Assembly (NCBI GenBank): GCA_007376135.1
Contig: VMFR01000005.1
Span: 4,141-68,140 of the forward strand
Origin: Parcubacteria group bacterium Gr01-1014_31
GTDB lineage: Bacteria; Patescibacteriota; Patescibacteriia; Buchananbacterales; GWA2-38-13
Reading direction: 5' to 3'
DNA: 64,000 bases
In this document: in pieces, positions 4,116-49,152 of the stretch
Layout: each line of letters opens with the position of its first letter
How positions within the stretch are numbered: the first letter of the stretch is position 1
Notes under the pieces: model-generated
Seen by the model: the letters and a program-made list of their open reading frames with translations, nothing else
What the model was told of the DNA's origin: nothing
Database searches by the model: none
Position numbers and translations under genes: made by a program

Positions 4116-4243
4116 TCCGGAGAGCGTGCCGGCCGGTGGGAGCGACCCGTCGGCAGCGGTGGCCGAGCCGGCCCTAGGCGCCGGCAGTTTGGCCTATCGC
4201 TACCATTCTACTACGAATCCTGCGGCCGGGGGTAACGCCGCGG

Positions 4244-12316: not shown

Positions 12317-12350
12317 CAAAACCGCCCCGCTTAAGCGGGGCGGTTTTGTT
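12317..12350. terminator. Bidirectional rho-independent terminator between convergent genes
   Basis: aaaaccgccccgcttaagcggggcggttttgtt. Confidence 0.7.
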
Positions 12351-12858
12351 ATTTGGAAACCTGGTAGTACAGCGGGGTGCCGTTCGGTCCGTTGCTGGAC
12401 GCCTGCAGCACGCCCGTGCCGGCATTGGGCGTGGGCGCGGTCAGCCCCGGCAGCGTGACCGTCTCTCTGGTGTTCTCAAAATTCGCGTACAGGACGCAGT
12501 GGCCGTCAGCGGTTGCCGTATAACGGTAGTTGGTCGCCGCATCCGTGCCGGTCTTGGGGTCTTTGGGCAGGTTGGTCAGCGCCGATGCGAATTGCGGGTA
12601 CTTGGTCCGCAACTCGGCGGCAACCTCCGCCAGGTCGTAATCGCCCGCTCCGGCATCGGGCAGATAGCACTCGCTGCTCATCAGCATCCGGCCCATCTGG
12701 CTCATGGTGTGCAGACGCTTGGTGTCCCGCGCCTTGCCCACGACGCCGCTGAGCGAAACGATGACCAGTGTCGCCAGTATCCCGACAATAGCTACGACGA
12801 CTAATAATTCAAGAAGGCTGAACCCGCTGCGAAAAGATCCTGTCCGCATACCCATCAA
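12349..12858 (-). CDS. Type IV pilin / pseudopilin with class III prepilin signal
   Basis: N-terminal RSGFSLLELLVVVAIVGILATLVI processing and methylation motif (G|FSLLE). Confidence 0.75.
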   Translation of the reverse strand: MMGMRTGSFRSGFSLLELLVVVAIVGILATLVIVSLSGVVGKARDTKRLHTMSQMGRMLMSSECYLPDAGAGDYDLAEVAAELRTKYPQFASALTNLPKDPKTGTDAATNYRYTATADGHCVLYANFENTRETVTLPGLTAPTPNAGTGVLQASSNGPNGTPLYYQVSK

Positions 12859-13170
12859 ACTATTCTACTATTCACCCCGTTAGAGATTCGCAAGTGAACG
12901 CTTGAGGCGATTCTTCAGATAACGTTTCCCCATGCCGGATTTGAGATACGTCTCGCGTGCCCGCGCATCATCTTCGTTCAGACACGCTTCGTAATACAGC
13001 AGCCGAAACTGGCCTCGATGTTTAGTTGATTGGACCGTTCGTTCATTATGGATCCTCAAGCGTTCACGCAGATCGCTCGTATAACCGGTGTACCAACGTT
13101 TGTCCTTCAAACTTTGTAGTACGTAAGTGTAGAACATGAATCTCTAACGGGGTGAGCGCGAATAGTACCA
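12859..13170. mobile_element. Small TIR-bounded element carrying a GIY-YIG endonuclease gene
   Basis: Left end ACTATTCTACTATTCACCCCGTTAGAGA (12859-12886). Right end TCTCTAACGGGGTGAGCGCGAATAGTACCA (13141-13170). This gives a 15-bp perfect inverted repeat plus an ACTATTC outer match, and the IR overlaps the gene's stop codon. Related copies lie at 13483-13516, 14877-14952 and 15589-15665. Confidence 0.6.
12880..13137 (-). CDS. GIY-YIG nuclease family protein, 85 aa
   Basis: YTYVLQSLKDKRWYTGYTSDLRERLRIHN is the GIY-YIG motif. Confidence 0.7.
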   Translation of the reverse strand: MFYTYVLQSLKDKRWYTGYTSDLRERLRIHNERTVQSTKHRGQFRLLYYEACLNEDDARARETYLKSGMGKRYLKNRLKRSLANL

Positions 13171-13194
13171 TTGAACGAAATCTGGTAAATACGG

Positions 13195-13455
13195 CTAGAG
13201 AAGGGAGAGCAACTGCTTGACGATAACATGCTGCTGCCGAGCCAGAGCGTAGCAAACCAGCAGACTCTGCTTCTCGTACTCAATAATGTCGGCGGCCGAA
13301 AGGACCCGCAAATGCTTGGAAGTTGCCTTGAACGAAAGGCGAATTGCTTCGGCAATATCGCCCACCGGAGCCCCGGGGTGGCGCTTTAAATACTGCAAAA
13401 TTGCCAGCCGGCGGCGGTTGGCAGTCGCTTTCATCAGTTTCTCCAGGTTCTTCAT
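13195..13455 (-). CDS. ArsR/SmtB family transcriptional regulator
   Basis: ANRRRLAILQYL...VGDIAEAIRLSFKATSKHLRVL winged HTH. Confidence 0.7.
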   Translation of the reverse strand: MKNLEKLMKATANRRRLAILQYLKRHPGAPVGDIAEAIRLSFKATSKHLRVLSAADIIEYEKQSLLVCYALARQQHVIVKQLLSLL

Positions 13456-13482
13456 GCTCCCAAGCTTATCACAAGTCCTGCA

Positions 13483-13516
13483 CCTATGGAACTATTCGCG
13501 CGAATAGTTCCATAGG
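13483..13516. repeat. Perfect 34-bp palindrome directly upstream of the arsR start; resembles two element termini joined head-to-head
   Basis: CCTATGGAACTATTCGCGCGAATAGTTCCATAGG. Each half matches the right terminus of the GIY-YIG element (GCGCGAATAGT[A/T]CCAT). Confidence 0.6.
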
Positions 13517-13527
13517 ATGAACGGGGT

Positions 13528-14862
13528 TTACAGCAGAGCGGACGGATGACGGCACTGCGCAAGGAACTCCCGCTGCACCTTTTTCCGTTCCAGCAGACCC
13601 ACCTCCCGGAGGAAGGCGGCATCCTGCGCCGACTGCTCGCGCAATTTTTTGTCCAGCACGATAACCTGCTCATTCACCTGCAGCGCCAGGTCGTTGAGCC
13701 CGACCAACTTGATGCCGGCCAGCGTTCGCACGCGCGAGAGCGCCACGTACCCCATCCCGTATTCGAAGGTCTTTCCCAGGTCTATTTCGGCGCAATCCAG
13801 GCTCATACCCTGGCTCTTGTGCACGGTAATGGCCCACGCCAGCCGAAGTGGTATTTGGATGATGGACGCCAGGACCTTGCCGTCGTCCTCAATTGCCCAC
13901 GTTTCCGTCTGGGCTTTTATCTCCTCCCCGCTCAGCGTGGTAACCATAGGAAAACCGTCGTCCTCGTCAAACCCCGTCACGGTGCCGATGGTGCCGTTCA
14001 CGTAGCCCCGGTTGAAATTGTTCCGGATGAACATCACCACCGCCCCGACCTTCAGCGGCAGCTCCTGGTGGGCCAAGCAACCCCGCTGCAGCTCTTCTAC
14101 AAGGTGCGGGATGCCAATCGCTCGCATCGTGAACACTTTTTCCTCGCCGGGCAGTTTGTCGAGTTGCGTGAGATTGTACGCGTCCACGTCCGAATTGTGC
14201 GTGTACAGCAGCGTCGGCCGCACGATGCCGGCAACGGGCTGGTGCAGGCGTTCGCGCAGAATGTCGCGCGTCTCATCGGACACCCGGTTTTCTCGGATAT
14301 CGTTGAGTACGCGCAAAAACCGCTCATCGGCCTGCCGGTACTGCTCTTCCAGATAGCACACGGCAACGTCGGCGTTCTGCCAAGCTGCCGACTCGACGGC
14401 AAACCGGGGATCCTGGCCGTCGCGGGGCACGGGCGGCAGCTGGAAAAAATCTCCGCAGAACACTATCTGCAAACCGCCGAACGGCCGCAGGTCCTGCCGT
14501 ATAGATTTGCAGATGAGGTCCACCAGGTCCAACCGCTTGGCGTTCAGCATGGAAATTTCGTCGATGACCAAAACGCTGGCATAGTGCACGCGCGGCCACA
14601 GCTGCTCTTTTTCCAGCACCCTTTTCAGCTGCGCGTCGTTCAGCGTTTCGTGGATGCCCATACCGATCCATGAGTGGATGGTTCGGCCGTTCAAGTGCGT
14701 CGCGGCAATGCCGGTCGGCGCGGTGACCCCGACGTTGACCTTGTGTTTCAGAAGATACTCGATGTACCGGTTCAGCAAAAAAGTCTTGCCGCTCCCCGCC
14801 GGGCCGGTGAGAAAGACATTCCTGCCCGTCTTGAGCATTTCGTACGCCTCAAACCGCCGCAT
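13528..14862 (-). CDS. PIF1/RecD-like ATP-dependent DNA helicase
   Basis: Walker A GPAGSGKT, DEISML, and the FCGDFFQLPPV motif of the Pif1 family. Confidence 0.75.
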   Translation of the reverse strand: MRRFEAYEMLKTGRNVFLTGPAGSGKTFLLNRYIEYLLKHKVNVGVTAPTGIAATHLNGRTIHSWIGMGIHETLNDAQLKRVLEKEQLWPRVHYASVLVIDEISMLNAKRLDLVDLICKSIRQDLRPFGGLQIVFCGDFFQLPPVPRDGQDPRFAVESAAWQNADVAVCYLEEQYRQADERFLRVLNDIRENRVSDETRDILRERLHQPVAGIVRPTLLYTHNSDVDAYNLTQLDKLPGEEKVFTMRAIGIPHLVEELQRGCLAHQELPLKVGAVVMFIRNNFNRGYVNGTIGTVTGFDEDDGFPMVTTLSGEEIKAQTETWAIEDDGKVLASIIQIPLRLAWAITVHKSQGMSLDCAEIDLGKTFEYGMGYVALSRVRTLAGIKLVGLNDLALQVNEQVIVLDKKLREQSAQDAAFLREVGLLERKKVQREFLAQCRHPSALL

Positions 14863-14876
14863 AACATCAAAATACG

Positions 14877-14952
14877 ACTATTCTACTAATTTACCCCGCT
14901 AAAAGCGGGGTTCGCTCTCACCCCGCCAACGGCGGGGTAAATAGTACCATGG
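14877..14952. mobile_element. Gene-less (MITE-like) copy of the GIY-YIG element family
   Basis: ACTATTCTACTAATTTACCCCGCTAAAAGCGGGGTTCGCTCTCACCCCGCCAACGGCGGGGTAAATAGTACCATGG. Same termini as the 12859-13170 element, with two internal CCCCGC/GCGGGG hairpins. Confidence 0.5.
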
Positions 14953-14959
14953 TGGGTTT

Positions 14960-15160
14960 TTAGGGTTTGGGGTGAGTGTGCTGCACGCGGCCGACCACAC
15001 CGCTCTGCAAGCGGACCTTGATGCCGTGCGGATGGGTCGCGGAACTGGTCAAAATCTCCTGCACGATGCCGCGGGTCAGTTTCCCCGTCCGCTGGTCTTC
15101 TTTTTGGATAATGTCCACCTCCAAGCCTTCGACAATGTCTTCCCTATTTGGCACGGTCAT
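14960..15160 (-). CDS. YwbE (DUF2196) family small protein
   Basis: GLEVDIIQKEDQRTGKLTRGIVQEILTSSATHPHGIKVRL closely matches YwbE. Confidence 0.65.
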   Translation of the reverse strand: MTVPNREDIVEGLEVDIIQKEDQRTGKLTRGIVQEILTSSATHPHGIKVRLQSGVVGRVQHTHPKP

Positions 15161-15408
15161 ATTTTTCTAAAGAATCTAGAACGCTCAACAATATAGGCGG
15201 CAAGTTCTGGCTTGGTAAGACTTTCACCTAATTTTCTCTTGATCCTCAACCCAATCTGACGTATACGCTCCCTTGTTACACCCATTTCCTCACCGACTTC
15301 CTGGAGCGTCTTCCCTTCAAGTCGCAGGCTTAGGATTTTCTTTTCGCGAGGAGTGAGAAAATCTTCCTGCATTATCTTTTGCAAAACCGTGCTGTACTGC
15401 TGGGGCAT
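15157..15408 (-). CDS. Sigma-70 region-4-like HTH protein (small LuxR/sigma-factor C-terminal domain protein)
   Basis: [43 protein letters not shown]. Confidence 0.55.
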   Translation of the reverse strand: MPQQYSTVLQKIMQEDFLTPREKKILSLRLEGKTLQEVGEEMGVTRERIRQIGLRIKRKLGESLTKPELAAYIVERSRFFRKI

Positions 15409-15459
15409 AACTGTACTTATTTCTCCGTCATTGATGTGAGAAATACTGAATATAATTTA

Positions 15460-15531
15460 CGCCCTCGGCAGGACTTGAACCTGCAAATCCTCGTTAGAAC
15501 CGAGGCAGTTTATCCGTTAGCTTACGAGGGC
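15460..15531 (-). tRNA. tRNA-Arg (anticodon TCT)
   Basis: Hand-folded from sequence. Acceptor GCCCTCG/CGAGGGC. Anticodon stem CCTCG/CGAGG with loop GTTCTAA. T-arm GCAGG-TTCAAGT-CCTGC. Discriminator G. No CCA encoded. Confidence 0.75.
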
Positions 15532-15588
15532 ATGATTCCGACCCAGCACTGCCCCCTTCTCTTCTGCGGTGTAAACATAATCCCTGGA

Positions 15589-15665
15589 AACTATTCCCCT
15601 ATTTACCCCGCTGATAAGCGGGGTTCGCGCTTGACCCGCCGTTGGTAGTGGCGAATTAGAGAATG
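15589..15665. repeat. Degenerate copy of the TIR element family
   Basis: ACTATTCCCCTATTTACCCCGCTGATAAGCGGGGTTCGCGCTTGACCCGCCGTTGGTAGTGGCGAATTAGAG aligns with the 14877-14952 copy. Confidence 0.45.
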
Positions 15666-15673
15666 GGTTGAGT

Positions 15674-16474
15674 TTAGTAGAAGGTCATGTCGGGGTCGAA
15701 CTGACGGAGTTTCTTTGGCATGACGTCGTCGAGGTGATCCAGATCTTCGGGTACCAGCTCGATGAGCGGCAGTTTATATTTTGCGTACAGCGCTTGTTTG
15801 ATCGCCTTGCGCTTCAAGTAATCGGGCTTATCGTTCATGCCCCAAAATTCCACATACACACCCATCCGTTTCGTCGGCAACGGGATCAAAAAATCACACA
15901 CCAACGGTTCGGCCACCGGCACCCGTCGCTCATACCCATGCGGAATCAAATTGTGGTACAGCCAGTTGTCGATCGTTACCTCGGCGAAACTCCGAACATA
16001 GTGGCCGTCATCGGTGAATTTTTCGGGGTGGAACTCGTCACTGAAACGGAAATCGTGCTCCCAGGAGGTTTCGACATGATACTTCCCAAACGTCCGTTCG
16101 ACGGCCGCAACTTCCGCTGGCGTAAGCACCACCGGCGGGTAGTAACCTGTTTTCACTTTCTGAAAATTCAGCGCGCCTTTCAGCTGGAGACGGGTTAGTT
16201 GATAACGCCGGATTTTCCAAATCACACGCACCTGCTGCGAAAATTTTCCACCCCACGCCTCTGGAACTATATTGCCCTGCACCGTACCCAGCGCACGGAA
16301 CGTGCCGAACAGCCGCTCGGACATCAAATTGTACAGGTAGACAAAATCACCCTCGAGCAACTCCGCTAGCTGTTTCGCATGGATTGGCTTCTCTCCAAAC
16401 AACATCCGCTGGAAACACTCGTCCTGTGTGACATTAGTACAACGGAAAATATAGCCTTTGGGTGTGGACGGCAT
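15674..16474 (-). CDS. DCD (PUA-like/EVE-related) domain protein with an uncharacterized C-terminal domain
   Basis: PKGYIFRCTNVTQDECFQRMLFGEKP matches the DCD-domain N-terminal signature. Begins 14 bp after the MmeI-like stop. AT-rich. Internal Met taken as the start. Confidence 0.5.
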   Translation of the reverse strand: MPSTPKGYIFRCTNVTQDECFQRMLFGEKPIHAKQLAELLEGDFVYLYNLMSERLFGTFRALGTVQGNIVPEAWGGKFSQQVRVIWKIRRYQLTRLQLKGALNFQKVKTGYYPPVVLTPAEVAAVERTFGKYHVETSWEHDFRFSDEFHPEKFTDDGHYVRSFAEVTIDNWLYHNLIPHGYERRVPVAEPLVCDFLIPLPTKRMGVYVEFWGMNDKPDYLKRKAIKQALYAKYKLPLIELVPEDLDHLDDVMPKKLRQFDPDMTFY

Positions 16475-16487
16475 AAAAACAGCAAAA

Positions 16488-19298
16488 CTATGAAATCGTA
16501 CGGCGCGGCGAGGGTCTTTTCGTTGGTTTACTCTTACTTCCTGGATGTTCTTCTTTCCCGAGATACGCCTTGTACAGCCCAAACAAAAACTCTAACCGTT
16601 CGGGTTCGGTTTTGAAATCCCGCTTGCCGTAACATGCGTCAACCGCTCTGTCGAGGTTGTGGTGAGCATCGAGCAGCTCTTTTGGCATGGTGTTAGGATC
16701 ATAGAGATCGGCCAAAGTTGAACTGGTAAACTTTGCACGAGCATCAAGCACTGCCTGGGCTGCATTCTCAACAGCTTCTTTCTTATCCATCAATGGATTC
16801 TCCGGCCAAGGAAAGCTGTTGTAAACGATATCCTTCGAGTAACGGTAATCAGATTTTAGACGCCCTGCCACAGTACGCATCCAGGCCATGTGCATCCTAC
16901 TTTCCAATACTCCGAAATGGTAAAGACCCGCGCCAGAAACAATAAAAACTGCATCGCCTGCCAACGTATCTTTCCCCATAAAACCTATGGGGATATATTG
17001 GCGACGCTCGGAAGATACTTTTGGAATGACAAGGTAATCCCCATCTGGAATATTCTCAACATGGAAATGCGTTGGTTTTTCGGCCAGCCTTCGCGTTGGT
17101 TCACTTTTACTAAGGGCACGATATTGCCTTACGGCATTAATCCGTCGCATTACCTCAGGCAAGGAACGGATCTCATCTGGCCGTGCGTCACCTACCCATA
17201 GGCACCAGCGCTCAATCCCGTTAAGGAATTCTTCCGAGCCAATCCAACGTTTAAAGAATTTCTCCGCGCGTGGCTCTAAATGTAAAAACTTTAATTTTTC
17301 GGCCGCCGAGAAAAGATACATCCCTCCATCTATGGGCTTATTCCCAATTCCGATTTCTGGAATAATGCCCAAAGGTGCACGACGCCTCTCAAGAAAAACA
17401 TCAGGTGCGTCGACGAGATATGGATTAATATGAGAGGCGATAATCTCGTGTGGCTCGCCACGAATATCTTCGTATTCATATATCTTGAGAGTTTCGCCGG
17501 GCTGGCACCCAAAACCTATCACAACACAATACACAGCGGCTTTCCCCGGCGCCTCATTCGTCCACTTGAAAGTGCGATGTGCAAAATTAATATGGACCCT
17601 GTATCTCCCCATCATTTCATGCCATAGAATTCCTACCTGTTCTCCTTGAGTGATTGAATTAGTAGACACAAACGCACAGCTAATCGCGGTACCTTGAATG
17701 TATTGAGCTGCTTTGAGGTACCAACCTGAAACATAATCTAATACGCCACCTCCACTCTTATCACCAAACAACGAAACGATTTCCGCTCGTTGTTCATCAG
17801 CCATAACCTTCGAGCCAATAAACGGTGGGTTACCGACTATGTAGGTAAGTTTTTCCTCGGATACAAGTAATCGCCAGTCAATCTTCAGTGCGTTCCCCTG
17901 CATAATATGTGGCTGCTCAATGAGTGGAAGTTTACGGAGAGGCTCACCAAAGTAATCACCTAGTTGAACGTTTGTCATATGATCAGTCAACCAAAGTGAT
18001 AGCTGCGCAATCTGCGACGGGAATGATTCAAGTTCAATCCCAAACATCCTCTCGACGGAAAGTTTCGAAAGTTTCGATAAATCAATTTCCATCAGTAATA
18101 CACCCTGCCCGGCATCTACCCTAGCTGTGCGATCTTTATGCAATCGTTTAATTATCTCTAACTCAATTCTGCGTAGTTCACGATACGCGATGACAAGAAA
18201 GTTTCCACAGCCGCAAGCAGGATCAAGTAACGTAATTTTGGCTAACTTTTCCCATAAGGTGTTAAGCTTAGTAGTATTATTACCTACTGTCCTCAGTTCC
18301 CGCTCTAAATCATCTAGGAACAAACCACTTAGTACCTTAAGGATATTCTTCTCTGAGGTGTAGTGTGCACCTAAGTCATGGCGAGCTCGATCATCCATGA
18401 CCGATTGGAACATGGACCCGAATATCGCAGGCGAAATAACTGACCAATCAAATTGTACCGCCGCGATGATTGCGTCTCGGATGCCACGAGTGCCGAAGAG
18501 TGCGGGCAGCGGGGCGGCAAAAAGTCCACCATTAACGTATTCTAATGATGCAAGATCCTCATCAAAGTTTGTCTGCCGCTGGGCCGGCGGTGTATTTAGT
18601 ATTTGAAAAATTAGGCTTAGATGTGCACCAATATCTGAGCCGTCTTCTTTCGTTCTTTCTTCAAGGTAGTTACGGAAAAAATCACTATTAAAAATTCCGG
18701 TGTCATCGGCAAAGAAACAAAACACCAAGCGCGTCAGGAGCTTATCAATGGCCTCCCGGGGGTAATTCGTGATACGGATGGCTTCGTATAACTTTCCGAT
18801 GGCTTGAACCGCCTTAACACTAATGGGGTTTTCTTCACGATATGTCCGAACCCGAAATCCAGGAATGAAACTAAACAGCTTGATCTTTTTGGGGAATTCT
18901 TTAAGCTCGAATTCCTCCTGAAAAACCCCGCCGTCGGCCTCCAGATCATAAAACCGAATTCGAGCATAGTCCGTTACAACGATGTAACGAGGGCGATCAA
19001 CCTCTGGGAGCGCATCAAAATACGATCCTGCCTGTTGGTACGCGCTGTCTAAATTTTTACCGCCGCTTTTGTGTTCAACTATCAACGTGCCAGGCCAGAA
19101 TAAATCGATGAATCCACGATGGCGCTCACCGATGAGATTTACTTTTTCCTGATATCGGGCAACTGTGCGTCGTCGAATTCCGTATACCTCAAAAAACTCA
19201 TTCCAAAAAGACTGGTACTCACCGACTTCACTAGTCTGCCCCGCCCATTCACGGGCGAACGCGACTGCCTGGGCTCGTATTTCATTCCAATTCAGCAT
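16488..19298 (-). CDS. MmeI-family Type IIL restriction-modification enzyme (fused endonuclease, gamma-class N6-adenine methyltransferase and target-recognition domain)
   Basis: Collinear similarity to MmeI along its length: WNEIR, FFEVYGI, GFIDLFWPG, PRYIVVTDY, DPACGCGNFLVIAYRELR, GNPPFIG, CAFVSTNSITQGEQV, INFAHRTFKWTNEAPGKAAVYCVVIGFG, RWCLW, RQYIPIGF, RYRYSKDIVYNSFPW, DLYDPNTMPKELLDAHHNLDRAVD. 936 aa; MmeI is about 919 aa. Confidence 0.85.
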   Translation of the reverse strand: MLNWNEIRAQAVAFAREWAGQTSEVGEYQSFWNEFFEVYGIRRRTVARYQEKVNLIGERHRGFIDLFWPGTLIVEHKSGGKNLDSAYQQAGSYFDALPEVDRPRYIVVTDYARIRFYDLEADGGVFQEEFELKEFPKKIKLFSFIPGFRVRTYREENPISVKAVQAIGKLYEAIRITNYPREAIDKLLTRLVFCFFADDTGIFNSDFFRNYLEERTKEDGSDIGAHLSLIFQILNTPPAQRQTNFDEDLASLEYVNGGLFAAPLPALFGTRGIRDAIIAAVQFDWSVISPAIFGSMFQSVMDDRARHDLGAHYTSEKNILKVLSGLFLDDLERELRTVGNNTTKLNTLWEKLAKITLLDPACGCGNFLVIAYRELRRIELEIIKRLHKDRTARVDAGQGVLLMEIDLSKLSKLSVERMFGIELESFPSQIAQLSLWLTDHMTNVQLGDYFGEPLRKLPLIEQPHIMQGNALKIDWRLLVSEEKLTYIVGNPPFIGSKVMADEQRAEIVSLFGDKSGGGVLDYVSGWYLKAAQYIQGTAISCAFVSTNSITQGEQVGILWHEMMGRYRVHINFAHRTFKWTNEAPGKAAVYCVVIGFGCQPGETLKIYEYEDIRGEPHEIIASHINPYLVDAPDVFLERRRAPLGIIPEIGIGNKPIDGGMYLFSAAEKLKFLHLEPRAEKFFKRWIGSEEFLNGIERWCLWVGDARPDEIRSLPEVMRRINAVRQYRALSKSEPTRRLAEKPTHFHVENIPDGDYLVIPKVSSERRQYIPIGFMGKDTLAGDAVFIVSGAGLYHFGVLESRMHMAWMRTVAGRLKSDYRYSKDIVYNSFPWPENPLMDKKEAVENAAQAVLDARAKFTSSTLADLYDPNTMPKELLDAHHNLDRAVDACYGKRDFKTEPERLEFLFGLYKAYLGKEEHPGSKSKPTKRPSPRRTIS

Positions 19299-22530: not shown

Positions 22531-22658
22531 CGATGCGCCCATTGGTAGGAAAGTAGGTAAAAAATCGAGGCCCCGCCTCGGGCGGGCAGGGAGCAAAGCG
22601 GTGGGTCCCGCCAACGGCGAGGTAGGCCATTTACCCGGTAATGACGGTTTGAGGTTAC

Positions 22659-22772
22659 TGGATTCCCGCCTTCGCGGGAATGACGGTTTTTTTGATTTCT
22701 GGACCTCCGCTACGGCGCGGGGATGGCGGTTTCTGGTTTTTTTCTGGACCCCCGCCTACGCGGGGTGACAAT
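22659..22772. repeat. About 2.7 tandem copies of a 41-45 bp hairpin unit
   Basis: TGGA(T/C)(T/C)CCCGC(C)T(T/A)CG(G)CG(C)GGG(A/G)ATG(A/G)CGGTTT..TTTTT. A related gggaatgacgatttgtttt lies near 25870. Confidence 0.5.
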
Positions 22773-22773
22773 A

Positions 22774-22806
22774 CAAAAAAGCGCCACCAGCAGGTGGCGC
22801 TTTTTC
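22774..22806. terminator. Rho-independent terminator ending the DUF5674-to-DUF4342 operon
   Basis: aaaaaagcgccaccagcaggtggcgcttttt. Confidence 0.7.
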
Positions 22807-48688: not shown

Positions 48689-48705
48689 TCAATTATTTTA
48701 CTATT

Positions 48706-48800
48706 CATCCTATTTGGCTCGCGTGGCGGGATTCGAATTCACCACGGCGAACCTTCGGCCCGCAACCAATGGATTAATCCGCCGAAGACGGACTCTGCCA
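48706..48800 (-). pseudogene. tRNA-like remnant: partial duplicate of the tRNA-Asn 3' half with a 21-nt insertion in the T-arm and a different acceptor end (encodes CCA)
   Basis: Shares the exact 19 bp cccgcaaccaatggattaa and gggattcgaa with the adjacent tRNA-Asn. It cannot be folded into a complete cloverleaf. Confidence 0.45.
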
Positions 48801-48837
48801 TTGAGGTAAACTAAAAAGATACACAACACCCTCCCTG

Positions 48838-48909
48838 CTCCGGGGGCGGGATTCGAACCCGCAACCAATGGATTAACAGTCCACTGCTCTGCCGTTGAGC
48901 TACCCCGGA
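48838..48909 (-). tRNA. tRNA-Asn (anticodon GTT)
   Basis: Hand-folded. Acceptor TCCGGGG/CCCCGGA. D-arm GCTC-AACGGCA-GAGC. Anticodon stem GTGGA/TCCAT with loop CTGTTAA. T-arm GCGGG-TTCGAAT-CCCGC. Discriminator G. A 10-bp inverted extension flanks the acceptor stem. Confidence 0.75.
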
Positions 48910-49152
48910 GCAGGGAGGGTGTTCATAAGCCACTCCCGACCTTTTCCCGATTTTAAAAAACGTTCGCGGCCCATCGCTTCGGATCGCGTCTGATACTCCT
49001 CGCTTAACACGACGACCCAAGGGCCTCTATTTTTTGTGGAAAAACACCATCCGCGTTGTGTGACCGCAACCGTTCCGCAAGATTCTTTGTCTGGCCCTTG
49101 TAGAGCCTGCCCTTTCCATTACGAATGACGTAGACCCAAAATGACACAGCAC

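Follow-up and report, generated by a model that had tools for sequence, protein, structure and literature searches.

The DNA considered here is a stretch of 64,000 nucleotides from Parcubacteria group bacterium Gr01-1014_31 (contig VMFR01000005.1, positions 4,141 to 68,140), referred to throughout as the window. Positions 12872–13155 of the window are probably one copy of a compact insertion element that carries only the gene of a ~86-residue GIY-YIG nuclease. The unit, termed A, is ~275 bp (274 bp) long, and its sole gene, encoding a protein of 85 residues, lies between perfect inverted repeats. Elements of this family are widespread, occurring in more than 10 bacterial phyla. It is proposed tentatively that they are the smallest known autonomous DNA transposons: a GIY-YIG single-stranded DNA (ssDNA) nuclease of ~86 residues would mobilise its own ~275-nt gene and gene-less derivatives of 40–125 nt in more than 10 phyla. 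Such units would remain phenotypically silent by occupying start codons, so that the nuclease stop codon overlaps the host ATG. They would also insert in frame at the cleavage motif of prepilins (..LSLTG/FTLIE.., where the stroke marks the cleavage site), from which the prepilin peptidase of the host could free an intact pilin. The original prediction drew attention to A together with three nearby features, B (14877–14952), C (15589–15665) and P (a palindrome at 13483–13516). All of the sequences that it quoted are present at the coordinates given, and they exceed chance expectation.

A nuclease gene between covarying repeats

The nuclease gene of unit A (12880–13137, minus strand) encodes a single-domain protein that matches PF01541 (E 5.4e-14) over residues 1–69 of 85, with no second domain found. 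Every one of the 28 residues that are invariant in the family alignment is present in the protein, which is 100% identical to one annotated in Parcubacteria group bacterium Gr01-1014_31. As had been predicted, an inverted repeat brackets the gene: positions 12872–12889 and 13138–13155 form perfect 18-nt arms that abut the open reading frame (ORF). Read in gene orientation on the minus strand, the 5′ arm TCACCCCGTTAGAGATTC (13138–13155) ends at the ATG, which touches it, and the 3′ arm GAATCTCTAACGGGGTGA (12872–12889; TCACCCCGTTAGAGATTC on the plus strand) holds the stop codon and the family core CTCTAACGG. A second, inner helix can be formed by a perfect 14-nt inverted repeat, also on the minus strand. 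Its 3′ strand, CCTCAAGCGTTCAC (12894–12907), lies 8 nt before the 18-nt 3′ arm, and its 5′ strand, GTGAACGCTTGAGG (13054–13067), lies within the coding sequence. No target-site duplication is seen at this copy.

Relatives of the nuclease number at least 1,987 at 90% clustering, with 64–78% identity, and come from many phyla; their consensus ends ...KRYLKNRLKRFLSLTG. A scan of one genome per species yielded at least 452 encoding loci, of which the best 80 were examined. These loci, and contigs of other genomes containing relatives, carry L-numbers below (L014, L103 and so on). Lineages of the candidate phyla radiation, Omnitrophota, Planctomycetota, Nitrospirota, Thermodesulfobacteriota, Clostridia and Elusimicrobiota are represented among them, along with others. 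Both arms, with the core CCGTTAGAG...CTCTAACGG, surround the gene in 75 of 81 loci. The 5′ arm with CCGTTAGAG stands 3–18 nt before the ATG in 78 of the 81 (exact 9-mer in 67), and the 3′ arm with CTCTAACGG is found in 76 (exact 9-mer in 68), where the last codons usually read S-L-T-G-stop. The distance from arm to arm is 270–283 bp in most loci, and the same repeat is present in a Planctomycetes copy. In general form, the 5′ arm is (T/C)CCCGTTAGAG(A), followed by the ORF, and the 3′ arm is (T)CTCTAACGGG(A/G), with the 3′ strand of the inner stem just before T(A/G)T.

Both helices have been kept through compensatory substitutions. In an alignment of 71 elements, compared with 500 shuffles, 92.5% of the cells of the arm and inner helices are paired, against 86.4% in shuffles, and cells in which both partners have changed number 163 against 49.5; no shuffle reaches either observed value. 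Controls in which the strands were slid against each other show 33–53% pairing. The inner helix pairs ORF nucleotides ~71–82 with ~233–244, and T(A/G)T and the 3′ arm come directly after it. It is 96.5% paired in the 71 members and has compensatory changes at 7 of 11 pairs. Several of the covarying positions are codon wobble positions ~170 nt apart, for example AAA/AAG with CGT/CGC. Mispairs of the G.T and A.C types are equally rare (7 versus 8; 11 versus 11), which points to a requirement at the level of DNA and not of one RNA strand. The window copy itself bears on what is conserved. It has a 4-nt difference near its end, and its arm is read in a different frame (..SLANL, the stop falling within the arm). 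The arm nucleotides are kept despite this; therefore selection acts on nucleic acid rather than protein at the arms.

The family appears to be new. Neither the arm sequences in a relevant context nor any prokaryotic GIY-YIG element with terminal repeats was found described in the literature, in keeping with the suggestion in the original prediction that the element type may be undescribed; the nearest described system is Ssn/NTS (PMC11893778). Among solved chains, the nearest relatives are the UPF0213 protein BH0048 (E 2.4e-11 against a profile of the family) and EF2693, with SLX1 coming after them. No NCBIfam family scores above its cut-off (TIGR01453 reaches 18 bits against a cut-off of 56), and no PADLOC or PHROG family corresponds to the nuclease. 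No relatives were found on plasmids or in viral contigs. In one study, the genes that other bacteria received from Patescibacteria include one for a GIY-YIG protein (PMC12455944). The 28 contigs of P0033 were considered as a sign of multiple copies and rejected, being one locus seen across many samples.

Insertion sites, gene-less units and host genes

Four comparisons of filled and empty sites among relatives, of the kind that the original prediction had called for, show insertion: related genomes differ by the presence or the position of the element. In L032 the element lies on the start codon of der, where the sequence reads ...GTA ATGAAT, then the element CCCGTTAGAA...TTCTAACGGG, then ATGAAAAAG. 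At der, the related L054 is undisturbed (...AAA ATGAAAAAA); its own element, which is 89% identical, stands before pth instead. The syntenic site of L014 lacks a 67-bp mini-element that is present in L051. In orthologous ORF6N genes, L053 and L076 have elements that are 88% identical and occupy two sites separated by 48 nt, so that each provides the empty site of the other. A further pair, L034 and L039, was considered as an empty-site comparison for a mini-element and dropped, as the intergenic region is too diverged. The sequence ATGAA is repeated at the L032 insertion and single at the empty site in L054. From such ATGAA repeats a target duplication of fixed length was first inferred, a view weakened by the ORF6N pairs. 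Short, locus-specific direct repeats of 6–8 nt, such as GGCTGGCC, GGTCAAC and GGTTATGA, do occur at a subset of insertions, above the level of permutations. In syntenic pairs the GIY elements exceed the host DNA around them in similarity by 10–15 percentage points: 94 versus 84–86% for L034/L039, 92 versus 78–79% for L014/L051 and 89 versus 74–77% for L032/L054.

Gene-less units accompany the complete elements. In their flanks, the 80 loci have 26 further exact arms, where ~3 would be expected, and ~25 pairs of arms stand 41–124 bp apart beside family genes with no ORF between them, the arms being kept. Many of these units have a G+C-rich hairpin next to one arm, and one example, GGAAACACCGAAGGCGTTTCC TAT CTCTAACGG, is a collapsed inner helix. 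Terminal inverted repeats are therefore common to gene-carrying and gene-less units at the level of the family. The predicted family with both kinds of member is borne out by the 80 loci elsewhere; it does not extend to B and C of the window, where the defining arms are absent. Arms can also lie next to each other. The 3′ arm of a GIY element directly abuts a 5′ arm in L041 and L026, and a 5′ arm follows ~13 nt after a degenerate 3′ arm in L060.

The elements stand immediately upstream of host genes or in frame with them. In 47 of 71 loci, an ORF of at least 80 residues on the same strand starts within 45 nt of the 3′ arm, and in 25 of 71 this start lies exactly at +1, the stop codon of the nuclease and the host ATG overlapping as GGGATGA. 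The 5′ arm lies only 3–18 nt before the start codon of the element, which leaves little room for a promoter of its own. Fusions to pilin genes take this further. In L049 (2920–3400), the element is in frame on both sides within a pilin gene (MKTLFELKERG-FTPLEIKNHA-FYTY...LSLTG-FTLIEIML...); the nuclease reading frames of L037 and L063 continue without a shift into the mature pilin at the G/FTLIE cleavage motif. The 5′ arm, read in the pilin frame, gives F-T-P-L-E-I, which resembles the N-terminal motif of pilins. The arrangement of the L049 type would let prepilin peptidase release an intact pilin.

The palindrome and probable relics of elements in the window

The window is part of a contig of 166,780 bp, and 75.7 kb of the genome sequence were covered in all, comprising the window and an extension of 11.7 kb. 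Every gene from 12349 to 19298 lies on the minus strand. These include genes for a type IV pilin-like protein (annotated start ATG 12855), an ArsR/SmtB-family regulator (13195–13455), a Pif1 helicase (13528–14862) and a DUF2196/YwbE protein (14960–15160); a sigma-70 region 4-like protein, tRNA-Arg, a DCD-domain protein and an MmeI-family enzyme are also encoded on this strand. The DCD-domain protein (15674–16582, minus strand), a neighbour of tRNA-Arg and of the MmeI-family enzyme, has a match (E 1e-36) to PDC-S69, a candidate defence family. A, B, C and P occupy four consecutive intergenic gaps on one strand.

P (13483–13516) is, as predicted, a perfect palindrome of 34 nt (17+17) and consists of two outer flanks of A joined head to head. 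It lies 27 nt upstream of the start of the ArsR-family gene at 13455. Its folding energy is −13.3 kcal/mol (z −8.2 against shuffles), compared with −20.4 kcal/mol (z −5.8) for B. The outer motif ACTATTC...GAATAGT of A is half of this lineage-specific palindrome. One such half, GCGCGAATAGTACCAT (13156–13171), flanks the 5′ arm and is 94% complementary to 13486–13501; the same half also flanks the GIY elements of L103 and L102. The outer flank of the 3′ arm, ACTATTCTACTAT (12859–12871; TAGTAGAATAGT on the minus strand), can be read as a degenerate half of P and carries a −10-like TAGAAT, 6 nt before the pilin ATG at 12855. A flush junction of the element with the pilin start at 12858/12859 had been claimed; the annotated ATG places that start at 12855, a little short of the element. 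The spacing of TAGAAT to the pilin ATG (12855–12871) fits a leaderless transcript. The sequence ACTATTCTACTA, at up to 2 mismatches, has 7 matches against 0.79 expected, with none of 100 shuffles reaching 7, and a similar 12-mer stands upstream of another minus-strand gene at 4202.

Three close relatives, L102, L103 and L104, were found through Pif1 (81%, 82% and 72% identical, respectively). In L103 the position that B holds in the window, directly upstream of pif1, is taken by a full GIY element. Around it the sequence reads GGTACTATTCGC up to the element start CCCGTTAGAA, and at the other end TTAACGGGG, TGA and GCGCGAATAGTTCCATGG, which places the element in the centre of a P-type palindrome. 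The left junction of this element recurs after the L103 ArsR-family gene, as in the window, and the identical 28-nt core of P lies in an intact palindrome upstream of that gene. L102 has two intact P-type palindromes, a third that is partly degenerate, and a half joined to a truncated GIY 5′ end. In L104 the conserved start of pif1 is immediately preceded by a short relic, ...ATCCCGTTATCCGACGGGG..GGGGTAAATGCGAATGGTACC. Three observations on these contigs may be added. The 3,479-bp contig of L103 has a 30-nt end overlap inside the GIY element, which reflects either two copies or a circular GIY–Pif1–YggT–DUF2196–ArsR assembly. In L102 (4655–4710), an NTS-like hairpin, GTCATTCCCG...CGGGAATCCAG, has a small CCCCG..CGGGGTAAA hairpin nested in its loop, which recalls the second hairpin nested in B. 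In L104 (290–540), a UPF0213-type GIY-YIG gene (..LYTGITVDLARRVGEHN..), of another GIY-YIG subfamily, directly follows the DUF2196 gene in the same neighbourhood.

B (14877–14952) occupies the gap from the DUF2196/YwbE stop at 14960 to the pif1 start at 14862. Its minus-strand sequence is CCATGGTACTATT, a first bracketed segment TACCCCG CCGTTGG CGGGGTGA, the spacer GAGCGAA, a second segment CCCCGCTTTTAGCGGGGTAAAT and finally TAGTAGAATAGT. The central CGGGGTGAGAGCGAA agrees with the sequence at the 3′ junction of the element in L103, AACGGGGTGAGCGCGAA, comprising the 3′ end, the stop codon and the half of P. From these matches, B is best read as a decayed relic, in which palindrome halves surround the collapsed ends of a lost element, with a second small hairpin added. 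C (15589–15665, between the stop of the DCD-domain gene and tRNA-Arg) is 73% identical to B over 51 nt, and only its first hairpin still folds well (z −2.9). It is a diverged, older copy (paralogue) of B, with the same composite layout and more decay. B and C have in common with A only the outer 12–23 nt and ACCCCG/CGGGGT. Their description as copies of A with the same termini therefore fails, since the inner TTAGAG/CTCTAA is absent from both, and they are better interpreted as decayed relics lying at palindrome sites.

The gene order is DUF2196–B–Pif1–P–ArsR–A in the window and DUF2196–P–ArsR–GIY–Pif1 in L103, with the breakpoints at the repeats, which in this genome mark the sites where gene order differs from that of a close relative. 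The ArsR–GIY adjacency is found in both, and the two GIY proteins are 66% identical; the insertions are therefore old. Recent mobility, as claimed for the window, is contradicted by this shared adjacency at 66% identity and by the presence at the B site of a full element in L103 and a shorter relic in L104. The set of A, B, C and P is old and decaying, and not a recent burst. As to copy number, the four units counted in the original prediction are present, and no others were found in the 75.7 kb. A is the one canonical element in this sequence. No copies like A, B, C or P occur in ~70 other intergenic regions of the 75.7 kb, and the 11.7-kb extension adds no outer motif, hairpin or arm. When JGI metagenomes were scanned for the exact pattern of the B and C core, 10 matches came up, with unrelated flanks and no GIY-YIG gene nearby; this is close to a rough estimate of the number due to chance. 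The source genome is probably absent from that collection, which makes the negative a weak one.

Elsewhere in the window, a second GIY-YIG gene, frameshifted and of another subfamily, occupies 48912–49147 (minus strand), in the gap from the rpoD stop to tRNA-Asn, and its final codons (..PAPG, stop) extend into the tRNA 5′ end. Within 48700–48925 (minus strand), tRNA-Asn stands between the arms of a perfect 14-nt inverted repeat, AACACCCTCCCTGC / GCAGGGAGGGTGTT, which extends the acceptor stem. The tRNA is followed by a degenerate partial copy of the tRNA 3′ half, in which Aragorn calls no gene; this sequence was rejected as a tRNA, as no recognition followed trial deletions.

Competing explanations and known systems

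In the lineage of the window, the element occupies the centre of a P-type palindrome of 28–34 bp, itself a dispersed repeat in close relatives. If the family consists of self-mobilising elements, as is tentatively proposed here, a pathway can be sketched by analogy with the Ssn nucleases. (i) The nuclease would recognise the folded single strand. (ii) It would cut at the arm boundaries. (iii) The unit would then move through single-stranded intermediates.

Several observations weigh against this account. The relation to Ssn is one of domain class and size only, and the SRM motif that marks those systems has 1 match across the 80 homologous loci (421,625 nt), none near the genes. Direct repeats in the 6-nt register exceed permutations (3.29 versus 2.46) at a subset of insertions only. 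The ORF6N pairs of L053 and L076 show no duplication, and there is no consistent cut-and-paste signature. In two genomes with two copies each, the copies are ~73% identical, so that no recent transposition was caught in the parts of these genomes that are visible. The matches that identify B as a relic are 15–17 nt long and come from three relatives, among which L103 is represented by a 3.5-kb contig with a 30-nt overlap of its ends. Finally, a host function of P is conceivable, given its place upstream of an ArsR-family gene in two genomes.

Doubtful, yet the strongest of the alternatives, is that the nuclease is a domesticated host enzyme of the Ssn type. The gene and the hairpins of P, B and C would then form a resident ssDNA-cutting system, for example one that modulates recombination or DNA uptake, and not a selfish element. 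Ssn proteins are single-domain GIY-YIG enzymes of ~94 residues, with hairpin-flanked genes, that cut adjacent ssDNA (PMC11893778). The window itself has canonical NTS/SRM hairpins at 22658 and 22744, the ArsR–GIY adjacency is kept in a relative whose protein has diverged to 66% identity, and the elements are more conserved than the DNA around them. A resident function is harder to reconcile with insertions at unrelated genes in related genomes, for which empty sites are available for comparison, with gene-less derivatives inside coding regions and with elements fused in frame to pilins; nor does any of the 80 homologues have an SRM within 500 nt. The host-nuclease and mobile readings are in any case compatible, and the Ssn authors themselves raise an IS-like origin.

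Ordinary regulatory DNA is a rather unlikely source of B, C, P and the outer motifs. These would be ArsR-family operators, −10 elements (TAGAAT) and hairpins at transcript ends, alike through co-regulation. The position of P, 27 nt upstream of an ArsR-family gene in both the window and L103, would suit an operator. The sequence TAGTAGAATAGT, part of the left terminus of A on the minus strand, is promoter-like in look: it stands 6 nt before the pilin ATG and aligns with host sequence just upstream of pif1 in L103. The four consecutive gaps on one strand, and the 12-mer upstream of the gene at 4202, are also in keeping with co-regulation. However, the P-type palindromes of L102 have no ArsR gene nearby, palindrome halves flank GIY elements exactly, and B holds arm ends and the stop codon of the element. 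The restriction of the units to this locus, among ~70 other intergenic regions, is a further point against it. A consensus scan found no terminator in A, B, C or P, with no T tract after the hairpins, and no sigma-70 promoter in B, C or P, and it returned a terminator-like site at 12322–12343; B, C and P were accordingly rejected as generic terminators or sigma-70 promoters.

It is improbable that the inverted repeat is a structure of the mRNA, formed by the 5′ leader and 3′ end, which limits translation of a toxic nuclease and has no part in mobility. The helices covary strongly, and pairing of a 5′ arm placed 3–18 nt before the ATG would mask the ribosome-binding region. Gene-less units nevertheless keep their arms, the equal numbers of G.T and A.C mispairs are unlike those of one RNA strand, and insertion polymorphism is present. 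Searches of Rfam at gathering thresholds returned three tRNAs only, with no RNA family at the repeats and no group I intron. The attC inverse-core and core consensus sequences of integron gene cassettes are RYYYAAC and GTTRRRY. An integron-type cassette is most improbable of all: CTCTAAC and GTTAGAG resemble these, and arms abut in L041 and L026 or nearly meet in L060, but the repeat is split around the ORF instead of forming an attC of 57–141 bp after it, the elements are scattered singly at the starts of housekeeping genes, no integrase is found among the called neighbours, and one insertion has a 5-nt repeat.

Reading the family as mobile elements has several consequences. If it is correct, a new class of nuclease would be added to prokaryotic transposition, and a new lower size limit set for an autonomous element. 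If the elements mobilise themselves, the recently discovered Ssn-type single-strand nucleases would gain a rationale as selfish elements, which would answer a question not settled by the Ssn authors. In poorly studied phyla, housekeeping and pilin genes are split by the elements, fused to them or overlain by them at the start codon, and recognising the elements would improve gene calling there. Together with its target sequences, the nuclease could add to the sequence-specific ssDNA cutters available to biotechnology.

Among known systems, the GIY-YIG homing endonucleases, whether free-standing or encoded in introns (I-TevI and the Seg proteins), have the catalytic domain in common with the family, as well as selfish spread into conserved genes. 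The nuclease had been assigned to this class, from which it departs in having 85 residues, no DNA-binding domain and no intron; bounded repeats and miniatures are not features of homing genes. Miniature inverted-repeat transposable elements such as Correia likewise have terminal inverted repeats and insert beside or inside genes, and resemble the gene-less units of 40–125 bp in relatives. They differ in that a gene-carrying form of ~275 bp exists here, that there is no consistent target duplication and that the gene-less units of the window are without the family arms. The IS200/IS605 and REP/RAYT (REPIN) systems are also hairpin-defined, with a single small nuclease gene flanked by palindromes, dispersed palindromes, nested mosaics and relics. 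Their enzyme is a Y1 HUH protein and not GIY-YIG, the present unit is far smaller at ~275 bp, and its ends are true inverted repeats.

Ssn/NTS is the closest comparison, and its layout was noted as IS-like by its authors, movement not having been shown (Chenal et al. 2025, PMC11893778). A canonical NTS/SRM hairpin cluster of the Neisseria type lies in the window at 22560–22775, between a Dam-like methylase gene and the next gene; its SRM hairpins, CGTCATTCCCGCGAAGGCGGGAATCCAG (22658–22685) and TGTCACCCCGCGTAGGCGGGGGTCCAG (22744–22770), both on the minus strand, are 2 matches against 0.47 expected. When both flanks were scanned within 500 bp for the SRM motif HGTCWYN(0-2)YYVSBRHN(0-5)WNVSBRGN(0-2)RNCYNB, there was none around the nuclease gene of unit A, for which the hairpins at 22658 and 22744 are the nearest matches, and none in A, B, C or P. 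Both systems have single-domain GIY-YIG proteins of ~85–95 residues, hairpin-forming inverted repeats that bracket the gene, and related hairpins nearby. At 85 residues, the window protein falls within the Ssn definition of a single-domain protein shorter than 150 residues. The hairpin repeats that Ssn genes have on both sides occur here in variant form, as an 18-nt repeat split around the ORF that covaries in 71 relatives, with halves of P outside. The family described here is set apart from Ssn by this split repeat, which is partly coding, by a second helix inside the ORF, by insertion polymorphism and gene-less derivatives, and by its occurrence mostly in uncultured phyla.

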